Shown here: positions 8,216-63,850 of the stretch, piece after piece | Numbering within the stretch: the first letter of the stretch is position 1 | How the letters are laid out: the number at the start of each line of letters is the position of its first letter | DNA from: an uncultured delta proteobacterium | GTDB taxonomy: Bacteria; Desulfobacterota; Binatia; Binatales; Binataceae | Reading direction: 5' to 3' | Assembly: GCA_963721485.1 (NCBI GenBank) | Contig: CAVRJV010000014.1 | Span: 139,134 to 203,133 of the forward strand | Length of the DNA: 64,000 nucleotides | Made by a program: the position numbers and the translations under genes | Notes under the pieces: model-generated | What the model saw: the letters and a program-made list of their open reading frames with translations, nothing else | What the model was told of the DNA's origin: nothing | Databases searched by the model: none

Positions 8216-8345
8216 TTCCGCTTCCTTCGAGGGAAGGGTTAGGGGTTAGGCTCTTTGGCGCGAGCGCAGAATTTGGAATTTTGGAATTTGGTCCCCCCAC
8301 CCGCCGCGCGTGGACGCGCGTCGGCCTCCCCCCACGAACGGGGGA
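8216..8345. repeat. REP/BIME-like hairpin modules (cttccttcgagggaagg + gttagggg; cgcgcgtggacgcgcg; cctccccccacgaacgggggagg)
   Basis: This stretch consists of palindromic GC-rich modules. The 8293-8345 segment is about 80% identical to 56457-56525, and the hairpin plus 'gttagg' module recurs at 56336-56376 and 63809-63850. Confidence 0.6.
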
Positions 8346-8352
8346 GGCAATT

Positions 8353-12014: not shown

Positions 12015-12863
12015 TCATCCCTGGAACGACGGGCCCATGAACGCGCTCGGTGGCGTAAGCGGTGACTGCGTATCCTGTCCGGGTGCGTTTGCGAAGAACT
12101 GGCTGCCCACAGTCATCCCGCCGTCGACGACCATCGCCTGCCCGGTGACGAATTCCGAATCGTCGCTGGCCAGATAGAGCGCCATCCCCGCGATATCTTC
12201 CGGATGGCCGGCGCGCCGAATCGGCTGCCCTTCGCCATAAATTGCTCCATCGCCTCCTTCATGCCGGGCTGATTGCGATGCAGTATCGGCGTATTGATTC
12301 CGCCGGGGCAGATACAGTTGACGCGGATTTTGTCCTTCGCGAATTCCAGCGACGCCGAACGCGTCAGGTTGACGACGCCGGCCTTCGCCGCGCAATACGC
12401 ATGCAAGCCGTTGAAGCCGCGGATACCCGCGACCGACGCGGTCGAGATGATCGAGCCGCCGCCGACTTTACGCATCTCGGGCGCCGCGTGCTTCATCCCG
12501 AGGAATACGCCGCGCAGCAACACCGACTGGCTCCTGTCCCAGTCTTCGACCGAGATTTGTTCGAGTGGTCCGACCGCGCCGCCGATTCCGGCGTTGTTAT
12601 AGATAATGTCGAGACGGCCGAACTCGCTGATGGCGCGCGCGACCAAGCGCCTTGATTTCGGCTTCGGCGGAAACGTCGGTCTTCTGGAAGACCGCGCGCC
12701 CGGCGTTCTCCTTGCAATCGCGAACGGCGGACTCGCCGCCTTCGACGTTAAGGTCCGCGATCACGACGGCCGCGCCTTCACCCGCGAACTTGATCGCAGT
12801 CGCGCGCCCGATCCCGCTCGCCGCGCCGGTGATTACCGCCACTTTGCCCTTGAGCCTGTCCAT
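12015..12863 (-). CDS. SDR family NAD(P)-dependent oxidoreductase (paralog 1); frameshifted
   Basis: ORF 12597-12863 gives [21 protein letters not shown] (TGxxxGxG). ORF 12113-12646 gives NNAGI...[21 protein letters not shown] (YxxxK). ORF 12015-12395 gives the C-terminus [22 protein letters not shown] plus an approximately 40-aa extension. Confidence 0.8.
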
Positions 12864-13008
12864 TTGAGATTTCCTCTGTTGAAAAATTTAGACGTTACTA
12901 CAGACCAACGACTCGCTATCGTAAGTCGGAATCAGACCGCAACTTTTCGAAGGCTCGCTCGTCTTGCAGCTAAGAAACGAGCGGCGATAGCCGCCGAGGG
13001 TGATTAAC

Positions 13009-14515: not shown

Positions 14516-15340
14516 TCACATCTCGAACGAAGGACCGGAGAAGCCGCTGTCCGGCAGCCCCGCCATCCGAAAGCGCGCGTTGCCGGTGTTGATTCCGCCG
14601 TCGACGACCATCGCAGTGCCGCTGATCCAGTCGGCGTCGTCGCTCGCGAGGAACAGCGCCATCGTCGCGATGTCTGTCGGGCTTGCCGGCGCGCGGTATC
14701 GGCTGCATTCGCGCCATGACTTCTCCGATCGCTCTTCGGCGCCCGGGCCCCGCGATGGATCAGTGGCGTATTCACGCCGCCGGGGCAGATGCAGTTGACG
14801 CGAATCTTGTCGTGCCCGACTTCGATCGCGACCGCCTGCGTCAGGTTCACGACCGCCGCCTTCGCCGCGCTGTATGCGGCCAGATAGCCGACGCCGCGCA
14901 GTCCCGCGACTGACGCAGTCGAGATAATCGAGCCACCGCCCGCCTTGCGCATCTCGGGGATCGAATACTTCATGCCGAGGAAGGCCGCGCGCAGGAGTAT
15001 GGCGATAGTTTTGATCGAAGTCGGCGGATGCCACTTTTTCGATCGGCCCGACGGCGCCGGCGACGCCCGCGTTGTTGAACATGATATCGAGCCGCCCGTA
15101 TTCCTTGACCGCGCGCGCGACCGCGGCCTTGATATCGGCCTCGCTGGTCACGTCGGTGCGCTGAAACACGGCGCGTCCGCCCGCCGCCGCGCATTCTGCC
15201 ACCGCGGTCTCGCCGCCCTGCGAGTTCAAATCGGTGAGCACGACGCTCGCGCCTTCTTTCGCGAACCGAAGCGCCGTCGCGCGGCCCATCCCGCTCGCTG
15301 CGCCGGTGATCACTGCAACTTTTCCCTGGATTCTGCCCAT
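14516..15340 (-). CDS. SDR family NAD(P)-dependent oxidoreductase (paralog 2); frameshifted
   Basis: [21 protein letters not shown] (ATG 15338-15340, AGGAGA RBS) and ...NNAGVAGAVGP lie in ORF 14516-15484. ORF 14377-14973 gives SVAGLRGVGYLAAYSAAKAAV. The C-terminus ALFLASDDADWISGTAMVVDGG...SGPSFEM parallels paralog 1. Confidence 0.8.
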   Translation of the reverse strand: MGRIQGKVAVITGAASGMGRATALRFAKEGASVVLTDLNSQGGETAVAECAAAGGRAVFQRTDVTSEADIKAAVARAVKEYGRLDIMFNNAGVAGAVGPIEKVASADFDQNYRHTPARGLPRHEVFDPRDAQGGRWLDYLDCVSRGTARRRLSGRIQRGEGGGREPDAGGRDRSRARQDSRQLHLPRRREYATDPSRGPGAEERSEKSWRECSRYRAPASPTDIATMALFLASDDADWISGTAMVVDGGINTGNARFRMAGLPDSGFSGPSFEM

Positions 15341-15458
15341 TGAATTTCTCCTGCGCGCATAGCGTCGCGCGGTGTTTTGATGTGAATCGCAAATTCTCAA
15401 TAGCAATGATTGAGGCGAGGTCGGGTAGAGCGGCGGCGCAATGATATAGTAGGCGGCC

Positions 15459-20425: not shown

Positions 20426-21572
20426 ATGGATCTCGAACTCACAGAAGCCCAGCGCGGCGCGCGCGACGTTGCCCGCCGCTTCGCGCGCGAGAAGCTCGGG
20501 CCGATCGGCGTCGAGGCCGACCGCTCGCATCGCTATCCCGCCGAGGCGATCGACGAACTGGCGCGGCTCGGCATGCTCGGCATCTTCATCCCCGAGCAAT
20601 ACGGCGGCGCCGGCCTCGATCATGTCGCGTATTCGCTGGTGCTCGAGGAGCTCGCGGTCGAATGCGCTTCGACCGCGGTCATCATGTCGGCGCATTGCTC
20701 GCTCGCGTCGTGGCCGATTCTCGGGCTCGGCACGGCGCAGCAGAAGAATCATTTTCTGCCGAAGATGGCGACCGGCGAATGGATCGGATGCTTCGCGCTG
20801 ACCGAGCCGCAGGCCGGCTCCGACGCCGCCGGTCAGAAGACGCGCGCGGTGCGCGACGGCGACTCGTACGTCATCAACGGCACCAAGAATTTCATCACCA
20901 ACGCGCCGCAGTCGAAGGTGGCGATCGTGTTCGCGATGACGCAGCCCGACAAGGGCCATCATGGCATCAGCGCGTTCGCCGTCGAGACCGGCACGCCGGG
21001 ATGGGCCGTCACGCGCGTCGAAGACAAGATGGGAATTCACGGTGCGCATAGCGCGCAGCTCGAGCTTCACCGACATGCGCGTGCCGCGCGAAAATCTGCT
21101 GCTCAAGGAAGGCGAGGGCTTCAAGGTCGCGATGAAGACGCTCGACGGCGGGCGCATCGGAATCGCGTCGCAGGCGATCGGAATCGCGCGCGCGTCGCTC
21201 GAGGCGTCGTTGAAGTACGCGCAGGAGCGGCAGACCTTCGGCAAGCCGATCGCGCAGTACCAGGCGATTCAGTGGAAGCTCGCCGACATGGCGGTCGAGA
21301 TCGACGCGGCGCGCCTGCTGACGCATCGCGCGGCAACGCTAAAGGATCGCGGCCAGCCGTGCACCAAGGAATCCGCGATGGCGAAGCTGTTCGCCGCCGA
21401 AACCGCGATGAAGTCCGCGACCGAGGCGGTGCAGATTCACGGCGGCTACGGCTACACCAAGGAGTTCAAGGTCGAGCGTTATTTCCGCGACGCCAAGATC
21501 ACGGAGATCTACGAAGGCACTTCCGAGATTCAGCGCCTGGTAATCGCAGGCAGCGTGCTCGACAACCGCTGA
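20426..21572 (+). CDS. acyl-CoA dehydrogenase (short/branched-chain type); frameshift near 21040
   Basis: ORFs 20426-21586 and 20961-21572 carry the motifs [41 protein letters not shown] and [11 protein letters not shown]. Confidence 0.85.
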
Positions 21573-23637: not shown

Positions 23638-24790
23638 ATTTCGATCTGACTGAAGAGCAGCGGCGCATCCGCGAAACGCTCACCGACTTTGCCGAGCGCG
23701 AAATCAAGCCGCACTCGACCAAGTGGGACAAGGACGAGACCTTCCCGCGGCATATCGTCGAGCAGCTCGGCCAGCTCGGCTTTCTCGGCGTCGCGTTCCC
23801 GGAGAAATTCGGCGGCGGCGGCGCGGATACGCTGTCGCAAGTGCTCGTCGTCGAAGGCCTCTCGCGCTTCGACGCGTCGATCGGCCTCACCTGCGCCGCG
23901 CACATGTCGCTCTCGACCGGGCACATCGCCGGGTTCGCCTCTGACGAGCATCGCGATCACTACGTTCCCGAGATGCTGCAGGCGAAGAAGCTTGGCGCAT
24001 GGTGCCTGACCGAGCCGAGCTCCGGCTCCGATGCGGCCGCGATGCATACCAAGGCAACGCGTGTCGGCGACAACTACTCGATCACCGGCTCCAAGATGTT
24101 CATCACCAACGGCACCGTCGCTGACGTGTACGTCGTGATGGCGATTACCGAGCAGGCTCGCGGGCGTGACGGCGTGTCAGCGTTCATCGTTGATCGCGGC
24201 ACGGCGGGACTCTCGAACGGCAAGAAAATCGAGAAGCTCGGTCTGCGCGCGTCGGACACCGCCGAAGTGATTTCGAAAACGTCACAGTGCCGGCGCGCAA
24301 CCTCGTCGGCGAGCTCGGCGCGGGCTATCGGCAGACGCTCAAGGTGCTCGAAGCGGGACGAATCGGAATCGCGGGATTCGCCGCAGGAATCGCGCGCGGC
24401 GGTTTCGAGGAAGCGCGCGCATACGCGCTCGAGCGCGGGCAGTTCGGCAAGAAGATCGCCGAGTTCCAGGCGATCCAGTGGATGTTCGCCGACATGGCGA
24501 CGCGAATCGACGCCTCGTGGATGCTGATCTGCCGCGCCGCCGCGCTCAGGGATGCGGGCAAGCCGTTCGCGCGCGAAGCCGCGATGGCGAAGCTGTTCGC
24601 GTCGGAAACCGCGATGTGGACGACGATCAAAGCCGTGCAGATTCATGGCGGCTACGGCTACGTCACCGATTTCCCGGTCGAGCGCTACATGCGCGACGCC
24701 AAGCTCTCGGAAATCGGCGAGGGCACCAGCGAAGTGCAGCGCATGATCATCGCCAAGTCGCTGCTGCGCGACGGCTACATGCCCGCCTGA
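23634..24790 (+). CDS. acyl-CoA dehydrogenase; frameshift near 24270
   Basis: ORFs 23634-24527 and 24287-24790 carry [39 protein letters not shown] and [14 protein letters not shown]. Confidence 0.85.
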
Positions 24791-37902: not shown

Positions 37903-38008
37903 GCGCTGCGCGATTTCGGAGACCGGAACCGGCTTCGGTTGCGCGAAGCTGTGCGAGGTCCTTCCTCCCGTCGCTATCGCTCCGGTCGTCAGGATGAGAC
38001 AAGAGAGG
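37903..38008 (+). repeat. intergenic repeat family A, copy 1 (about 105 bp, internal hairpin ggcttcgGTTGCGcgaagc)
   Basis: Copies 1 and 2 are about 87-90% identical; copy 3 at 62297-62400 is roughly 80% identical. All three are in the same orientation. Indels between copies break any reading frame, so the element is non-coding. Confidence 0.8.
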
Positions 38009-39431: not shown

Positions 39432-39536
39432 GCGCTGCGCGATTTCAAAACCGGTACCGGCTTCGCTTGCGCGAAGCTGTCCGAGGTCCTTCCTCCCGTC
39501 GCTAACGCTCCCGTCGTCAGGATGACACGAGAGTCG
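39432..39536 (+). repeat. intergenic repeat family A, copy 2
   Basis: See copy 1. Copy 2 lies between the hypothetical gene and the gspN stop. Confidence 0.8.
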
Positions 39537-51095: not shown

Positions 51096-51816
51096 TCAGT
51101 GCCCGAGGTGGCGGCCGAAGAACGCAGCGATGCGTGTCCAACTGTCTTCGGCGGCCTCGGGATTGTACTCCGCCTTCATCGGGCCGATTTTCCCGATCCA
51201 CGGCAGGAATCCGCTGTTGCGGCTCATGAAGCTGTGGCCCGCGTCTTCGTAGACTTTCACGTCGTGATCGATTCCCATCTCGGTTAGCAGCTTTTCGAGC
51301 CGGCGTCCCTGCGCCGCGAACATGCGATCTTGCCCGCCGTAGCCGCCGAGCACGGGACATACACCGCGTAACTGATCGGCAGTTTTCGGTACGTCGCCGT
51401 AGAATGTCGCGGCGACGCCGAGCGGAGCGCGCGCCGCGTACATCAGGGCGAAGCCGCCGCCCATGCAAAAGCCGATCACACCGATACGCGCAGTGTCGAC
51501 GCCGGGTTGTTGCTGCAGGAAAATCCGCGCCGCATCGAGATCCTCGAACGCGTCGCCCTCGCCGCGATTCAATGTCATCAGCGTGCGCGCGATACAGATG
51601 AGACGCGCGCCTTGTCGATCATAGAGGTCAGGCGCGAGGGCTGCGTAGCCGAGGTCGGCGACCATCCCGGTGATACGCCGGATGTCGTCGTTGAGCCCGA
51701 AGATTTCGTGGATAACGATCACGCCGGGATGTTTCTCGACGCCGGCAGGCGCGGCATAAGCAGCGCGCATCGGGCGTCCGTCGTCGAGCGGGGAAGGTGA
51801 TGTCAGTGGTGGTCAT
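51096..51816 (-). CDS. dienelactone hydrolase family protein; N-terminal frameshift
   Basis: HPGVIVIHEIFGLNDDI is followed by the nucleophile motif GVIGFCMGGGFAL and a His region (YEDAGHSF). The N-terminus MTTTDITFP (ORF 51628-51816) is in another frame. Confidence 0.8.
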
Positions 51817-51830
51817 CGGATACTCCTTAA

Positions 51831-51889
51831 CACTGGGTGCAGGGGGTCCCCCCTGCCGAAGGAAGTTTGAAACCCACCGCGGGTTTCAA
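51831..51889 (-). repeat. intergenic repeat family B, copy 1 (inverted orientation; hairpin tgaaacccNNNNgggtttca + cttccttcggcaggggNNcccctgcac)
   Basis: Its reverse complement matches the 5' part of the copies at 52838-52929 and 56213-56304. Confidence 0.75.
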
Positions 51890-51895
51890 GTTAGA

Positions 51896-52777
51896 TTAAT
51901 TCTTCTTGTTCCCTTTTTTCTTCGACGCGCGATTCTTCGAGCGCGGGCCCGAGCCATAATCGCCGAATGGATCGTCGCGATCGCGGACTGCCTGCCGAAA
52001 TCCTGCTGCTTGCGCGCGCGCGACGAAATCGAGGCCTTCCTGCGTGTGCCGCGCGATCCCGTCGAACAGCGATCCAACCAGCCTCGACGTCGCGAGGCCC
52101 ATATTCTCCGCCGTGTGATTGCAGAGCAGCTTCAGCATCTGCAGTTGATTCGTCGGCACTCGCGCCATCCGCTCGGCCAGCGCGGTCGCGCGCGCGTCGA
52201 GTTCGTCGTCGGGGACGGTTTCGAGAATCAGTCCGATACGCGCAGCTTCGGGCGCGGGGATTTCATCGCCGGTCAGCAAGTAACGCTTGGCGCGTTCGAG
52301 GCCCATCCGATAGACCCACATCGCGGTGGTCGGCGTGCCCCACACCCGCGACGGCGGATAGCCGAACGACGCCGACTCGGCGGCGATGATCAGGTCGGCG
52401 CATAGCACCATGTCGGTGCCGCCGCCGATACACCATCCGTGAACCGCGGCGATAGTCGGTTTCCGCGCGTACCAGAGCTTCATGTAGACGTTGACGTATT
52501 GCGAGATCATCCCGTAGTCGGCGACCGAGTCCCACACGCGCTTGCGCGACCCTTCGCCGGCCTGCGCGCGGGTCGAGCCGTCGAGTGCGTAGCCGGCGCA
52601 GAACGCGGGACCCTCGGCGCGAAGCAGGATTACGTGGACGCCTGGGTCGGCGTCGGCGCGATCGATCGCGGCGGCCAGCTCGTCGCGCAGGTCGGGAGTG
52701 ATCGTGTTGTACTCGGCAGCGCGCGTGAGCGTGATGATACCGACGCCGTTGCGAGTCTCGGTGCGCAGAGTTTTCAT
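51896..52777 (-). CDS. enoyl-CoA hydratase/isomerase family
   Basis: The ORF is intact at 293 aa. It carries ILLRAEGPAFCAGYAL and IAAVHGWCIGGGTDMVLCADLIIAAE. Confidence 0.85.
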   Translation of the reverse strand: MKTLRTETRNGVGIITLTRAAEYNTITPDLRDELAAAIDRADADPGVHVILLRAEGPAFCAGYALDGSTRAQAGEGSRKRVWDSVADYGMISQYVNVYMKLWYARKPTIAAVHGWCIGGGTDMVLCADLIIAAESASFGYPPSRVWGTPTTAMWVYRMGLERAKRYLLTGDEIPAPEAARIGLILETVPDDELDARATALAERMARVPTNQLQMLKLLCNHTAENMGLATSRLVGSLFDGIARHTQEGLDFVARAQAAGFRQAVRDRDDPFGDYGSGPRSKNRASKKKGNKKN

Positions 52778-52837
52778 GGGAGTCGGATATAGCAGAGCAC
52801 GTAGGGAAAGGGGGAAGGGCAGATCACTTTATTTTAA

Positions 52838-52929
52838 TGTGAAACCCGACGTGGGTTTCACGCTTCCTTCGGCAGGGGTAACCCCTGCACCTTGGCATCA
52901 AGAAAAGATGCGGGACTTCGTCCCTGTTA
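52838..52929 (+). repeat. intergenic repeat family B, copy 2
   Basis: The sequence is tgtgaaacccgacgtgggtttcacgcttccttcggcaggggtaacccctgcac...agatgcgggacttcgtccctgttag. It is about 90% identical to copy 3. Confidence 0.8.
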
Positions 52930-52952
52930 GAACGTTTGAGCGACGAGCGTCG

Positions 52953-53648
52953 TCAGGCTGCCTTCGGCTTTTTCTGCACCGGCGGGGTGGTCTCGCTCAT
53001 GCGGCGCGTCACTTCCTCGTCGCTCATTGTCCAGATGCGATTGTCGGGCGGGTAATCCATCAGCGGCTTCGACGGATCGGGCTTCGGCTGCGCGACTTTG
53101 CCGCCCTTCGATTCGAACGGCGCGGGATGCTTGTACTTCTCGACTTCGTCCGCACTTATTCCCGCCAGCGCCTGGACTTCGGGATCGATCCATGCCTCAG
53201 CGTCGATCGAGCCGCCGTCCGAGGTCGAGAACTCGAGCATGATTCCCTCGGGCGCTGCCAGGTAGATCGATTTGCAGAAGCCGTGATCGAGCGGGCCCAT
53301 CACCCAGTGTCCGTGCGAGCGGACGCGGTCGCGAATCGCAAGCAAGTCGGCGTAGGTGTCGACGTTGAGCGCCAGATGCTGCATCGCGCCAGGCGCGACG
53401 TTCTGCGTCGTGTGTCCCGCGTGCGAGACGCCCTTGATTGGCTGGATCTTGGCGATGTCGGGATGCTGGACGAAAGCGATCGACGAGCTGTCGCTCAGCT
53501 TCATGAAGCCGTGGAAGGTGTTGTCGACCCCATGCATCCAGTAGAGCGCGACCAGTTCCATCCCGACGACTTGCGAGAAGTAGTCGATCTGCTGCTTGAT
53601 GTCCTTGGTGCAGATAGCGAGGTGATGCACTCCGTTGGGCAAACCCAT
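52953..53648 (-). CDS. VOC family protein (glyoxalase/bleomycin-resistance/extradiol dioxygenase fold)
   Basis: The ORF is intact at 231 aa. It shows two beta-alpha-beta-beta-beta modules (GVHHLAICTKD...; MQHLALNVD...). Confidence 0.75.
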   Translation of the reverse strand: MGLPNGVHHLAICTKDIKQQIDYFSQVVGMELVALYWMHGVDNTFHGFMKLSDSSSIAFVQHPDIAKIQPIKGVSHAGHTTQNVAPGAMQHLALNVDTYADLLAIRDRVRSHGHWVMGPLDHGFCKSIYLAAPEGIMLEFSTSDGGSIDAEAWIDPEVQALAGISADEVEKYKHPAPFESKGGKVAQPKPDPSKPLMDYPPDNRIWTMSDEEVTRRMSETTPPVQKKPKAA

Positions 53649-53776
53649 GATGCCGACCTCCGTGGTGAGTGATCCTGTTCTGCCACAACGAGAGCTTGAA
53701 GGGAACTGCCTGATCCTTCGCCCGTTATTTTCACGGGAGAGGTTAGGTGAGGGTTCTGCGATTCGAGCAGAAAACG

Positions 53777-54676
53777 TTAACCGATGATCTTATTCAACGG
53801 GAACTCGACGATTCCCACTGCGCCTGCCTCGAGCAGTTTCGGGAACAGCTCGCGCACTGTCTGCTCGGTGATCACAGTCTCGACGGCCAGCCATTCGACG
53901 CCCTTGAGCGCCTTCGACGGGTAGAGATGCGATATGGTCGGCGCCGTGATCGACGGCAGCAGGGCGATCACTTTTTCGAGATTCTCTTTCGCGCAATTCA
54001 TCTTGATCCCGACGCGATTCTCGGCGTCGAGCGCGCCGCGAATCAGGATGCCGATCTGCCGAATCTTGGCCTGCTTCCACTTATCCGTCCACGCCGCCGG
54101 ATTGGCGACCAGCACCGGATTCGAGGTCATCAGCTCCTCGACGATGCGCAGGCCGTTGGCGCGAATCGACGATCCGGTCTCGGTCACGTCGATCGCCGCG
54201 TCGATGATGCCCTCGGCGACCTTGGCCTCGGTCGCGCCCCATGAAAATTCAACTTCTGCTTTAACTTTGCGCTCGGCCAGGATTCGCTTGACGAACTGCA
54301 CCAACTCGGTCGCGATTCGCTTGCCCTGCAGATCTTCGAGCCGCTTGACCGGCGAATCGTTGCGCACGTACAGCACCCATCGCGAGGGCGTCAGCGTCGC
54401 CTTGGCGTAGATGAAGCTCTCGACCTGCTCGAGCTTGACGTTGTTCTCGACGATCCAGTCGCTGCCGGTGATGCCCGCGTCGAGCGATCCGTCCGCGATA
54501 TACCGCGGCATCTCTTGCGGCCGCAGGATGCGGCAGCTCAGCGCCGCGTCGTCAGTCGCCGGTATGTATGAGCGCGCGTCGGCGGTGATGCGCCAACCGG
54601 ACTTGCGCATCAGCTCGAGCGTCTGATTCTCGAGGCTTCCTTTCGGGATGCCGAATTTCAGAACCTTGTCAGCCAT
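53777..54676 (-). CDS. hisG: ATP phosphoribosyltransferase, long form
   Basis: MADKVLKFGIPKGSL has its ATG at 54674-54676. The protein is about 299 aa with a C-terminal regulatory domain, and the core carries DAAIDVTETGSS. Confidence 0.85.
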   Translation of the reverse strand: MADKVLKFGIPKGSLENQTLELMRKSGWRITADARSYIPATDDAALSCRILRPQEMPRYIADGSLDAGITGSDWIVENNVKLEQVESFIYAKATLTPSRWVLYVRNDSPVKRLEDLQGKRIATELVQFVKRILAERKVKAEVEFSWGATEAKVAEGIIDAAIDVTETGSSIRANGLRIVEELMTSNPVLVANPAAWTDKWKQAKIRQIGILIRGALDAENRVGIKMNCAKENLEKVIALLPSITAPTISHLYPSKALKGVEWLAVETVITEQTVRELFPKLLEAGAVGIVEFPLNKIIG

Positions 54677-54683
54677 GTTCGAA

Positions 54684-55124
54684 TCAACCGGCCGGCTTCT
54701 TTTGATGCCCGTAGTTGGGGCCGTACTTGGCGGGATCGACTTTGCGCTGGTCGACGACCTTCCATGCGCCACCGTCGAGCTTGCGAAAGAAGCACGACTC
54801 GTAGCCCTCGTGGCATGCGGCGCCGTCGCCGCGCTGCTCGACCGCGACCACGACCGCGTCGGCATCGCAATCGATGCGAATCTCGTGCACGATTTGAAAA
54901 TTTCCCGACTCTTCGCCCTTGCGCCACAGCTTGTTGCGCGATCGCGAGAAGTAGCACGCGCGGCCGGTCGCGATCGTCTCGTCGAAGGCCTCGCGATTCA
55001 TGTAGGCGACCATCAGCACGCGATGGCTCTGGTGATCGACGGCGATCGCGGCGACGACGCCGCCGTTCTTGTCGAAATCGATTTCCGCCGATGCATCCGA
55101 GCCCGCTTGTGCATTCGTTGCCAT
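54684..55124 (-). CDS. hisI: phosphoribosyl-AMP cyclohydrolase (monofunctional)
   Basis: [27 protein letters not shown]...[28 protein letters not shown] identifies it. It is about 146 aa, with ATG at 55122-55124, and lies immediately upstream of hisG. Confidence 0.85.
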
Positions 55125-55321
55125 TACTTTTCCCGAATTCGATAGTGCACTAAAATAAATATAGCGCTTGTGAACCAAGCAGTATCGGTCAAACCCCGGT
55201 GCGATTCAATGCGGCATGTTGTGCGCGCCACGCCTGCCTGTTTAAAAATAGCGACAATGCGAGTAGATTACGGGCCGATGTCAGACGGCTTACCGGGCGC
55301 CTCGCCCGTTCACAATTAAAC

Positions 55322-56186
55322 ATGCATCCATTCAAAGCGCGAAGATTGGTGAAGCTTTCTATTGTGGCGATCATGCTCGCCGTGTCGTCGATCGCATGCC
55401 ATATCCCCGGCAAATCGATCGCGTCGAATTACAACAACGTCGATCAGTTCAACTTCGACGTTGCGCATGGGCCCAAGAATTACCATATCGAGGGCTACCT
55501 GACGCGCAGCAGCGAGCAGGGTCGGCGCCCCGGTCTGCTGGTGCCTCAACGGCGGCGAGGGCAACGTCGATCAGTGCGTCAAGATGAGCCAGGGAATCGC
55601 CGCGATGGGAATCCAGGTCGCGTGCGTGAGTATCCCCGGCTACGGCAATTCGTCGGGACCGAGCCGCTTCGTCGGGACAGCCGTCGGTGCTGGCGTCGCG
55701 CAAGGCGCTCGACCTGCTGGCAGGGCGCAACAACGTCGATGCGTCGCGGCTGGCGGTCTGGGGTCTTGGGCATGGCGCAGTCGCGGCGGGCTTGTTGATG
55801 GACTACGACTCGCGGCCGCGCGCGCTGATACTTGAATCGGGATGCTACGATCCGCTGTCGCTGTGGCCGAGGCGCCGCTGCGCACCAAGCTGTCGATCCT
55901 TCGCGAAGTATGGCCCAGCAAGCGGATATTGCAGGAGCGCAGCGTAATGGCGCATCTGCCGTCAAAGCTCGATATCAGCGTGTTGATCATGCACGGCCAG
56001 CAGGATAACCGGATGCCGGTGGGACAGGCGGTAAAGCTCGCGGACGCATTGCGCGAGCGCGGCGCGAAAGTCCAGACGTATTATTTTCCGCAGGCGTCGC
56101 ATGACCTCGGGAAGCGCGTCGAGCCCGAGCTGCGCGCGTTCCTGCGCGACAACCTGCTCGACACGAATCGCGCCGCCGCATCGTAA
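55322..56186 (+). CDS. secreted alpha/beta hydrolase (dienelactone hydrolase/peptidase S9-like); frameshifted
   Basis: The signal peptide MHPFKARRLVKLSIVAIMLAVSSIAC is followed by a nucleophile region (LAVWGLGHGAVAAG) in frame 55687. The C-terminal His region (IMHGQQDNRMPV...QASHDL) is in ORF 55842-56186. Confidence 0.6.
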
Positions 56187-56204
56187 GGGCAAGCAGAATT
56201 CACG

Positions 56205-56530
56205 TAATTTAATTTGAAACCCACGGTGGGTTTCAAACTTCCTTCGGCAGGGGTGACCCCTGCACCCAGTAATATAAAGAGATGCGGGACTTCGTCCCTG
56301 TTAGGAACTCGTTTTGGGAGAGGCGGCGGCCGTCCGGGTTCCCTCCTCCTACGTGGGAGGAGGGTTAGGATGGAGGACAAATGCGCCGCGCAAATTTCTG
56401 GAGCACGGCACGTTCCTGTGCGGGTACGAGCAGCAATCAGAAATTTAGAAATTAAGGTCCTCCACCCGCCGTGCGCGAACGCACGTCGGCCTCCTCCCAC
56501 GAACGGAGGAGGCGAGGATAGGATTGTCGT
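56205..56530. repeat. composite REP/BIME-like array: repeat family B copy 3 (56213-56304) plus at least two further hairpin modules
   Basis: Family B copy 3 (56213-56304) is followed by a gttccctcctcctacgtgggaggagggttagg hairpin (56336-56376) and a 56457-56525 module matching 8293-8345. The array fills the intergenic space between the hydrolase and bcp. Confidence 0.8.
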
Positions 56531-62296: not shown

Positions 62297-62400
62297 GCGC
62301 TGCGCGATGTTCAGAACCGGAACCGGCTTCGCTCGCGGCGAAGCTGTCCGAGGTTCCTCCTCCCGTCGCTTCGCTCCTGTCGTCGGAATGACACACAGAC
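62297..62400 (+). repeat. intergenic repeat family A, copy 3
   Basis: See 37903-38008. It lies between the rpiA stop and the glycerate kinase start. Confidence 0.8.
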
Positions 62401-63808: not shown

Positions 63809-63850
63809 AACCTCACCCCTAACTCCTCTCCCTTCTGGAGAGGGAGCGGA
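63809..63850. repeat. REP-like hairpin module (cccctaac + ctctcccttctggagagggag)
   Basis: It has the same 'gttagggg' plus GC-hairpin organisation as 8225-8250 and 56336-56376. Confidence 0.5.

Follow-up and report, generated by a model that had tools for sequence, protein, structure and literature searches.

Copies of the repeat in the window

The stretch of DNA analysed here, called the window throughout, comprises 64,000 nucleotides (nt) from an uncultured delta proteobacterium of the Binataceae (assembly GCA_963721485.1, contig CAVRJV010000014.1, positions 139,134 to 203,133 of the forward strand). It contains three related copies of a short, hairpin-rich repeat, which were confirmed by direct reading and by a repeat search (families D19, I1 and I2). 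An enoyl-CoA hydratase gene lies between copies 1 and 2. The places at which an earlier note on this DNA had put the three copies held, and their coordinates were slightly corrected with an nhmmer profile. All coordinates of the cores given below are those of the profile.

Copy 1 occupies 51826-51902 on the reverse strand. Read on that strand, it consists of an AT-rich head (51902-51890), hairpin 1 (51889-51867), a linker (51866-51857), hairpin 2 (51856-51839), which has the variant form GGGGGG-A-CCCCC, and finally ACCCAGTGTTAAGGAG. The head contains the TAA stop codon (51896-51898) of the hydratase gene, and the 3' end of the copy serves as the Shine-Dalgarno sequence for the ATG at 51816, with no tail in between. 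Copy 2 lies on the forward strand at 52829-52897, with hairpin 1 at 52839-52861 (GTGAAACCC-gacgt-GGGTTTCAC), the linker GCTTCCTTCG at 52862-52871 and hairpin 2 at 52872-52888 (GCAGGGG-taa-CCCCTGC). It is followed at 52906-52930 by a module which we call tail A, made of GATGC, the small hairpin GGGAC-ttc-GTCCC (52912-52924) and TGTTAG, and it is preceded at 52800-52828 by a purine-rich arm, GGGAAAGGGGGAAGGGCAGATCAC, which reappears as GGGAAGGGnAAATCAC ahead of many cores. Copy 3, also on the forward strand (56201-56275), has hairpin 1 at 56214-56236 (TTGAAACCCA-cgg-TGGGTTTCAA), the linker ACTTCCTTCG at 56237-56246, hairpin 2 at 56247-56263 (GCAGGGG-tga-CCCCTGC) and, at 56280-56304, a tail A of the same sequence as that of copy 2. 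The pattern formed by the linker and hairpin 2, CTTCCTTCGGCAGGGGNNNCCCCTGC, had three matches in the window, and the 25-nt tail AGATGCGGGACTTCGTCCCTGTTAG had two (52906-52930 and 56280-56304); the number expected from shuffled sequence was 0.00 in both cases.

The earlier note had described a first hairpin tgaaaccc-NNNN-gggtttca, a second stem and a conserved tail in each copy. The first hairpin is real, while its spacer was miscounted: five nucleotides, not four, separate TGAAACCC and GGGTTTCA, and for this reason the pattern as literally written matches nothing. The second stem, our hairpin 2, is found in all three copies. The tail is present in copies 2 and 3 and is missing from the inverted copy 1.

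Abundance and lineage range

The pattern CTTCCTTCGGCAGGGGN{2,5}CCCCTGC, run against a single genome of each prokaryotic species, gave at least 117 stretches in at least 32 assemblies. The titles among the matches listed were mostly 'Candidatus Binatus', Binataceae or 'uncultured delta proteobacterium', with a few broader ones such as 'Deltaproteobacteria bacterium', and the sole differing label among them was that of one bin named Acidiferrales. A core profile was then trained on 134 exact-pattern copies, 131 from the loci retrieved (numbered with an L below) and three from the window, and it detected 180 near-full copies in the 0.93 Mb of the window and loci, including diverged ones missed by the pattern. 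Copy number thus speaks for a true repeat family. Cross-locus synteny and shared repeats link the repeat-bearing records to Binatus, an uncultured genus of soil bacteria in the phylum Binatota, and the window is syntenic with L066, a locus of a metagenome-assembled genome (MAG), at about 85% identity.

The hydratase located between copies 1 and 2 was used as the query of a metagenome search. Loci with a hydratase protein at least 88% identical to the query bear cores, while in 54 loci with a hydratase 72-84% identical (236 kb) no core, tail A or tail B (the second tail module, described below) was found, and there was a single match to the tag of another module, here called P-type. Since the relatives at 72-84% identity carry none, we conclude that core and tails are restricted to a narrow lineage. 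An exact-protein look-up of two window proteins for strain-level relatives returned none on record.

The bin labelled Acidiferrales (DATNLS01, 'Candidatus Acidiferrales bacterium SMAG_U11458') contributed six loci with Binatus-type repeats, L078, L080, L093, L106, L113 and L117. Over its best aligned segment, L080 shares 91% identity with a Binatus contig, and L117 shares about 89% with other loci that bear the repeat; the bin has probably been given a wrong label or suffers from contamination.

The family had not looked familiar to the author of the earlier note, and neither Rfam nor the literature changed that impression. A search of the window against Rfam 15 at the gathering scores gave no match, and E-value searches with the window elements and the tail-B loci gave chance-level matches only. 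The Rfam family skipping-rope was rejected as a candidate, as it scored 16 bits against a cut-off of 36.7 with one copy and not with the others. A literature search by sequence string and by taxon found no description of the family. It is therefore previously undescribed in the sources searched, while elements of its general kind are already familiar.

Consensus structure and covariation of the stems

The core measures about 76 nt. An AT-rich head is followed by hairpins 1 and 2, which are joined by a pyrimidine-rich linker (CTTCCTTCGG), and the core closes with CACCCAGTnTTAAGAA. The 5' part of the consensus reads (A/C)ACTTaATTgAATG / GTGAAACCC-gcggt-GGGTTTCAC / gCTTCCTTCGG, the last element being the linker, and the 3' part reads CAGGGG-tga-CCCCTG / CACCCaGTnTTAAGAa. 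Conservation forms one block with sharp borders, from 36 nt 5' to 14 nt 3' of the searched pattern.

Among 96 distinct cores, 96.9% of the stem cells were paired, compared with 36-53% in shifted registers. Five of the 16 stem pairs were altered on both sides, in 26 cells altogether; none of 500 shuffles reached 26 cells and one reached five pairs. Both stems of the core thus show compensatory changes beyond those of shuffled sets, as a folded element would. The changes are linked within subfamilies, which for hairpin 1 have the arms GTGAAACCC/GGGTTTCAC, GTGGAACCC/GGGTTCCAC, GCGGAACCC/GGGTTCCGC or TTGAAACCC/GGGTTTCAA and for hairpin 2 CAGGGG/CCCCTG, CAGGGC/GCCCTG or CAGGGT/ACCCTG. Since the changes are subfamily events, the independent covariation events are fewer than the cells counted. 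As RNA, either strand is predicted to fold stably, and the z-scores for copies 2 and 3 range from -2.9 to -4.6. The element strand has 6 G.T wobbles and 14 A.C mismatches; with wobbles not in excess, there is no sign that one strand was selected as RNA.

One subfamily carries CACCUCCUU in its linker, which we take to match the 3' end of 16S ribosomal RNA (rRNA). The arms GTGAAAC and GTTTCAC of hairpin 1 resemble the half-sites of parS; in hairpin 1 they stand in the opposite order, 9 nt from each other.

The core is the centre of a mosaic. Tail A (GATGC, GGGAC-ttc-GTCCC, TGTTAGAA) trails 69 of the 180 cores and tail B (AATC, GCgAAATGnCG-AGGA-CGnCATTTcGC, TCTCAGG) at least 45, while in the remaining cases other modules or the neighbouring gene come directly next. 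The stems of both tails covary, and the loop of tail B is nearly always AGGA. Hairpin 2 and its tag are also found without the rest of the core, and in L023 as a tandem; convergent pairs of cores exist as well (for example in L093, L003, L080 and L058), and in four copies another repeat is nested within the loop of hairpin 2. All modules follow a common plan, a hairpin and then a short conserved tag. The mosaic arrangement proposed earlier, like that of bacterial interspersed mosaic elements (BIMEs), is therefore borne out. The ATG of tail A opens no conserved open reading frame (ORF), because the downstream sequences differ.

Turnover at orthologous sites

The sites of copies 1 and 2 are occupied in L066 too. 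Copy 2 and its counterpart have the same stems and differ in the loop of hairpin 1, one linker base and the spacer, and in the counterpart of copy 1 the linker is longer by an 8-nt insertion and the loop is changed. In 25 of 135 syntenic comparisons the copy was absent, and alignment of filled and empty pairs revealed clean empty sites. Neither a target duplication nor long inverted ends were present at the junctions of these pairs.

The site at the stop codon of the hydratase gene was compared in 26 close loci, 24 of which reach far enough past the gene to be judged. A core stands directly after the hydratase stop in 13 of the 24, two of these (L127 and L129) with internal deletions; the other 11 have an empty site, a possible footprint, truncations or an ORF fused to hairpin 2. 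In L119 and L122 the site is empty, with 9 nt from the stop to the next ATG, in L125 it holds the short AACTTAATTAAAGAA, which resembles joined ends, and in L136 and L138 the head and seven bases of hairpin 1 remain. In L133, L141 and L142, which are metagenome contigs, the hydratase ORF runs on without the head and hairpin 1 of the element and ends at the TGA in the loop of hairpin 2. Where the site is filled, the stop codon of the gene is the TAA or TGA of the head, and both in the window and in L118 the 3' end of the element, TTAAGGAG, acts as Shine-Dalgarno sequence for the gene that follows. The site is held by different subfamilies in different lineages, which indicates re-insertion or conversion rather than divergence in place. 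A further site, upstream of the hydratase gene, holds a decaying copy in L118 and is empty in L137.

Some observations concern the genes next to these copies. In L133, L141 and L142 a repeat hairpin has been absorbed into coding sequence. In L066 about 1.2 kb of extra DNA with at least one ORF (1569-2766) lies between the core and the hydrolase gene, where the window has 51818-51831; since the break falls exactly at the 3' end of the core, the borders of the repeat may coincide with rearrangement points. The dienelactone-hydrolase gene itself (51770-51816 of the window, reverse strand) has one extra base near its 5' end in comparison with three orthologues, 43 nt instead of 42 nt preceding CCGATGCGCGC. 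The ATG at 51816, although preceded by a good Shine-Dalgarno sequence, is out of frame with the hydrolase body because of this base, and the body would otherwise start at 51770; the extra base is a frameshift, a sequencing error or the mark of a shortened start.

Orientation and gene context

The forward strand of the element is the G-rich strand in 118 of the 179 copies with a non-zero local GC skew (180 in total). When one locus was taken per syntenic group, the split was 35:14 along the skew (p=0.004), and it became 26:5 when an absolute skew of 0.02 or above was required and 17:2 when the limit was 0.04. The partial correlation of skew and orientation, with gene strand controlled, was r=0.55 (p=4e-5). 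The replication-type component of the skew gave 23:11, and the skew calculated from coding DNA alone 34:15. In most bacteria the strand rich in G corresponds in sequence to the template of the lagging strand, and the same kind of orientation bias is known from the IS200/IS605 elements, where it results from their movement as single-stranded DNA.

Genes were predicted with a simple caller based on GC3, which was validated on the window. Nearly all copies are intergenic, and the four classes of flanking-gene orientation are of similar size (31, 34, 28 and 25), without bias towards genes. A balance of this kind rules out that the element is a riboswitch, a leader or a polar terminator. A riboswitch or other element of the 5' untranslated region (UTR) was rejected also since a co-oriented gene lies downstream in just 57 of 121 cases. 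The head begins a median of 11-13 nt past the stop codon of a co-oriented upstream gene, and the stop is often inside it, while 54-70 nt separate the head from the start of a divergent gene.

Transcription signals of the family itself were not found. Nothing is conserved 5' of the head (beyond position -36), so the family has no promoter of its own, and a promoter consensus scan gave none above shuffles. On the element strand neither of the two core hairpins is followed by a T tract, and the terminator scan produced a weak 5-bp match on the reverse strand of tail A and no more matches than shuffles. The terminator role suggested in the earlier note is accordingly not upheld, as the element strand lacks a T tract and the copies show no bias towards genes. 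A stand-alone small RNA (sRNA) gene, another of its suggestions, is unlikely in view of the lack of conserved sequence ahead of the element. The lack of a gene-orientation bias and of a wobble excess argues against a strand-specific RNA role.

Search for a mobilising enzyme

A phmmer search with the E. coli TnpA-REP protein (the query was verified to be identical to PDB 4ER8) and the IS200 TnpA against 10,488 six-frame ORFs gave one match, a false one to thymidylate kinase. A Y1 motif search of the window and loci found none. This is a weak negative, because about 29 kb, or about 0.6% of each genome, was sampled. Clustering of 930 predicted neighbour proteins gave ordinary metabolic paralogues and four IS1595-like transposases. 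The genes of the latter, which have a zinc ribbon and a DDE domain as judged by sequence, lie at 3885-4838 of L079, 2076-3002 of L096, 6725-7660 of L097 and 1-344 of L089. As partners of the repeat they were rejected, being 250-1300 nt from cores without a consistent link.

Interpretation

We consider it somewhat probable (about 0.55) that the family is a lineage-specific, modular non-coding repeat, similar to the repetitive extragenic palindromic (REP) sequences and BIMEs or to the palindrome-associated transposable elements (PATEs), and that a trans-acting enzyme spreads it in the form of single-stranded DNA hairpins. The modules would be copied, now or formerly, to new intergenic sites as single-stranded hairpins at the replication fork, by an enzyme encoded elsewhere in the genome, for which an HUH/Y1-type transposase would be the leading candidate. 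Afterwards the copies would persist, decay by deletion or be replaced. From the GC-skew bias and the plan of a hairpin plus a tag we infer that single-strand spread by an HUH-type enzyme is the most likely route. At the level of sequence, the hydratase site shows that a copy can give an upstream gene a stop codon and a downstream gene a Shine-Dalgarno sequence, and that it can put stable predicted hairpins at messenger RNA (mRNA) 3' ends in either orientation; such effects on adjacent genes are probably by-products.

Several results weigh against spread as a mobile repeat. Most copies are stable, since they were kept in 110 of the 135 ortholog comparisons, and the junctions of the filled and empty pairs are fuzzy, the species compared being 80-93% identical. 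In 59 unique orthologous pairs the core identity was 91%, compared with 86% in the flanking, mostly coding, DNA, and random non-orthologous copies from different species were 88% identical. The core identity increased with the flank identity over the same 59 pairs (r=0.36); therefore the copies diverge in place, but slowly, and the family stays in a narrow sequence space. The unpaired linker is conserved as strongly as the stems, and such conservation of core and linker looks like sequence constraint, which a purely selfish element would not need; alternatively, gene conversion or ongoing copying of master copies might be the cause. No Y1/HUH transposase was found in the 0.93 Mb of window and loci, a search of low power. 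Finally, the direction of replication was deduced from GC skew alone.

The similarity to REPs, BIMEs and REPINs of Enterobacteria and Pseudomonas, which are mobilised by the Y1 enzymes RAYT/TnpA-REP, extends to multicopy, lineage-specific extragenic hairpins, mosaics with other short motifs, a frequent position just past stop codons, compensatory stems and the absence of long inverted ends and target duplications. On the other hand, the REP is one palindrome of about 35 nt, whereas the present core has 76 nt with two dissimilar hairpins and a conserved unpaired linker, and its copies are mostly single and not inverted doublets. The consensus head is GAATG-TGAAACCC, while TGTAG-TGAAACCC occurs only in a minority subfamily (TTGTAGTGAAACCC). 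REP genomes carry a RAYT gene, usually flanked by repeats, and none was found here in 0.93 Mb. The REP/BIME-like identity proposed in the earlier note is thus appropriate for a hairpin-rich, modular interspersed repeat, but membership of the REPs in the strict sense is not supported, as the unit is a 76-nt double hairpin and GTAG is confined to a minority. The PATEs, which are miniatures of IS200/IS605 elements moved as single-stranded DNA, share with the family hairpins near the ends, the absence of inverted ends and target duplication, an orientation bias relative to GC skew and a moderately conserved (A/C)ACT at the 5' junction, which at the hydratase site is host-gene sequence. The differences are that the two end hairpins here are dissimilar and that TnpA, TnpB and a full-length parent element were not seen.

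Other known systems are more distant. The BOX elements of Streptococcus pneumoniae, ERIC and Correia are likewise about 100 nt long, modular (boxes A, B and C in BOX), stably folded by prediction and able to donate expression signals to neighbours, but they have no sequence similarity to the present family; Correia and ERIC have long inverted ends and Correia duplicates TA, neither of which was seen here. A classical miniature inverted-repeat transposable element (MITE) was rejected, as the symmetry of the ends is limited to a 6-7-nt CTTAAT...ATTAAG and no duplication accompanies the filled and empty pairs. A TTAA target was also rejected, because the two TTAA-like end motifs do not covary (by eye) and the empty sites are without duplication. 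The attC sites of integrons resemble the modules in being imperfect single-strand hairpin sites with a GTTRRRY core, to which the tags GTTAGAA and GTTAGGG can be compared, but the seventh base of the tags does not fit. They were rejected since the copies are dispersed among metabolic and housekeeping genes in both orientations, in no cassette array, and an integrase was not seen.

With much less confidence we suggest that the core may be more than a decaying selfish repeat and may be the partner of a dedicated, vertically inherited enzyme, as REPINs are of RAYTs, and a new type of substrate with two hairpins and a linker, recognised on the lagging-strand template. This would explain the coexistence of old compensatory subfamilies across species, the conserved linker and the orientation that follows the skew. 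It seems rather doubtful that the family is instead maintained by a role as RNA in cis, in which hairpins in 3' UTRs or between cistrons would keep exonucleases off the mRNA, make ribosomes pause at stop codons or uncouple adjoining cistrons, roles described for the REPs of E. coli. The position of the head shortly after or over co-oriented stop codons, the preservation of the hairpins by compensatory change, the stronger conservation of cores than of flanking coding DNA, the exact fit of copy 1 between a stop codon and a Shine-Dalgarno sequence and the stable RNA folds predicted on both strands would all suit such a role. However, the copies have no bias towards neighbouring genes, even when co-directional pairs (31 against 28) are considered, G.U pairs do not exceed A.C mismatches, about one fifth of the copies lie between divergent genes, and copies decay freely in some lineages. 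Moreover, gene orientation does not explain the bias towards the G-rich strand.

That bias, independent of genes, would be expected also from a protein-binding DNA site with a chromosomal role in nucleoid organisation or in a replication-linked process, strand-biased like KOPS or Chi. Conservation that reaches into the unpaired linker, 88% identity across loci and species and the indifference to genes point in the same direction. We hold this to be improbable, since the family is limited to one genus-level lineage and absent from close relatives, its copies have been gained and lost, with some of them truncated or split by other repeats, and a 76-nt unit with compensatory stems suggests a folded single strand and not a duplex. 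It is very improbable that the copies are trans-acting sRNAs, in which a single-stranded CUUCCUU/CCUCCUU linker, similar to an anti-Shine-Dalgarno sequence, would pair with ribosome-binding sites. The near-invariant linker between two hairpins would fit, as would the CACCUCCUU of one subfamily with its presumed match to 16S rRNA; against it stand the missing shared promoter and the lack of any conservation upstream of -36, an element strand without a T-tract terminator, heads that overlap the stop codons of upstream genes, the absent wobble asymmetry and the lack of an Rfam match.

The Binatota are an uncultured soil phylum known only from MAGs, and their non-coding DNA is undescribed in the literature searched. 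The family can serve to mark the lineage, and one bin that is probably mislabelled has already been flagged in this way. It also accounts for the breaks that recur in these assemblies and for their variable intergenic regions. For annotators it is a caution that the stop codons and ribosome-binding sites of ordinary genes may be repeat-derived. If the link to the replication strand is true, the family would be a new type of substrate for single-strand DNA transposition and a handle on the enzyme; if the link fails, it is one more REP-like family.

Further modules and other repeats

The palindromic modules which the earlier note had reported after copy 3, and again near 8216-8345 and 63809-63850, are real. 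On the forward strand, a P-type module at 56341-56372 consists of the pyrimidine-rich hairpin CCTCCTCC-tacgtg-GGAGGAGG followed by GTTAGGATGGAGG, and a composite module at 56435-56522 of an AT-rich stretch, a GC hairpin and the hairpin GCCTCCTCC-cacgaac-GGAGGAGGC, after which comes GAGGATAGGATTG. A second copy of the composite module, also on the forward strand, lies at 8270-8348 and is 80% identical to 56435-56513 over 79 nt (repeat family D12). Next to it, at 8221-8250 (forward strand), stands a P-type module with CTTCC-ttcgag-GGAAG and then GGTTAGGGGTTAGG, which had seven matches in six sources; another, at 63811-63843 on the reverse strand, has CCTCTCC-agaag-GGAGAGG and then AGTTAGGGGTGAGG. 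A pyrimidine-rich hairpin with a GTTAGG-like tag is thus found at four sites of the window, 8221-8250, 56341-56372, 56488-56522 and 63811-63843 (reverse strand), and this module occurred 97 times in the window and loci, compared with 14 times in shuffled sequence.

The form CCGGTTCCCCTTCCCGCTCGGGAAGGGGTTAGGGGTTAGG is very common (for example in L035, L089 and L103, and at 8221-8250 of the window). It is built of a pyrimidine-rich hairpin and a tandem GGTTAGG tag, which gives several G runs, and its stems covary (CCCTTCCC, CTCTCCT and CCTCCTCC). In the few loci available, no GC-skew bias of this module was seen. Two more short repeats, GTGTCATTCnGAGCGAAGCGAAGAATCC and its relative CTCCTTCGGCTTCGCTCAGGACAGG, stand downstream of the tails in many loci, and CTCCTTCGGCTTCGCTCAGGACAGG is the repeat nested in the loop of hairpin 2 in L114, L037, L108 and L055.

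The window also contains a second repeat family (…GCGAAGCTGTCCGAGGTCCTTCCTCCCGTCGCT…), presumably the family A of the earlier note, at 37922-38005, 39450-39533 and 62338-62370, which matches the Binatus loci L006, L039, L105 and L097 at 79-90% identity. The long direct repeats at 12115-12875 and 14592-15352 and at 21216-21515 and 24422-24721 (72-75% identity; D1-D3, D9 and D10) look like coding paralogues in tandem, not like non-coding repeats.

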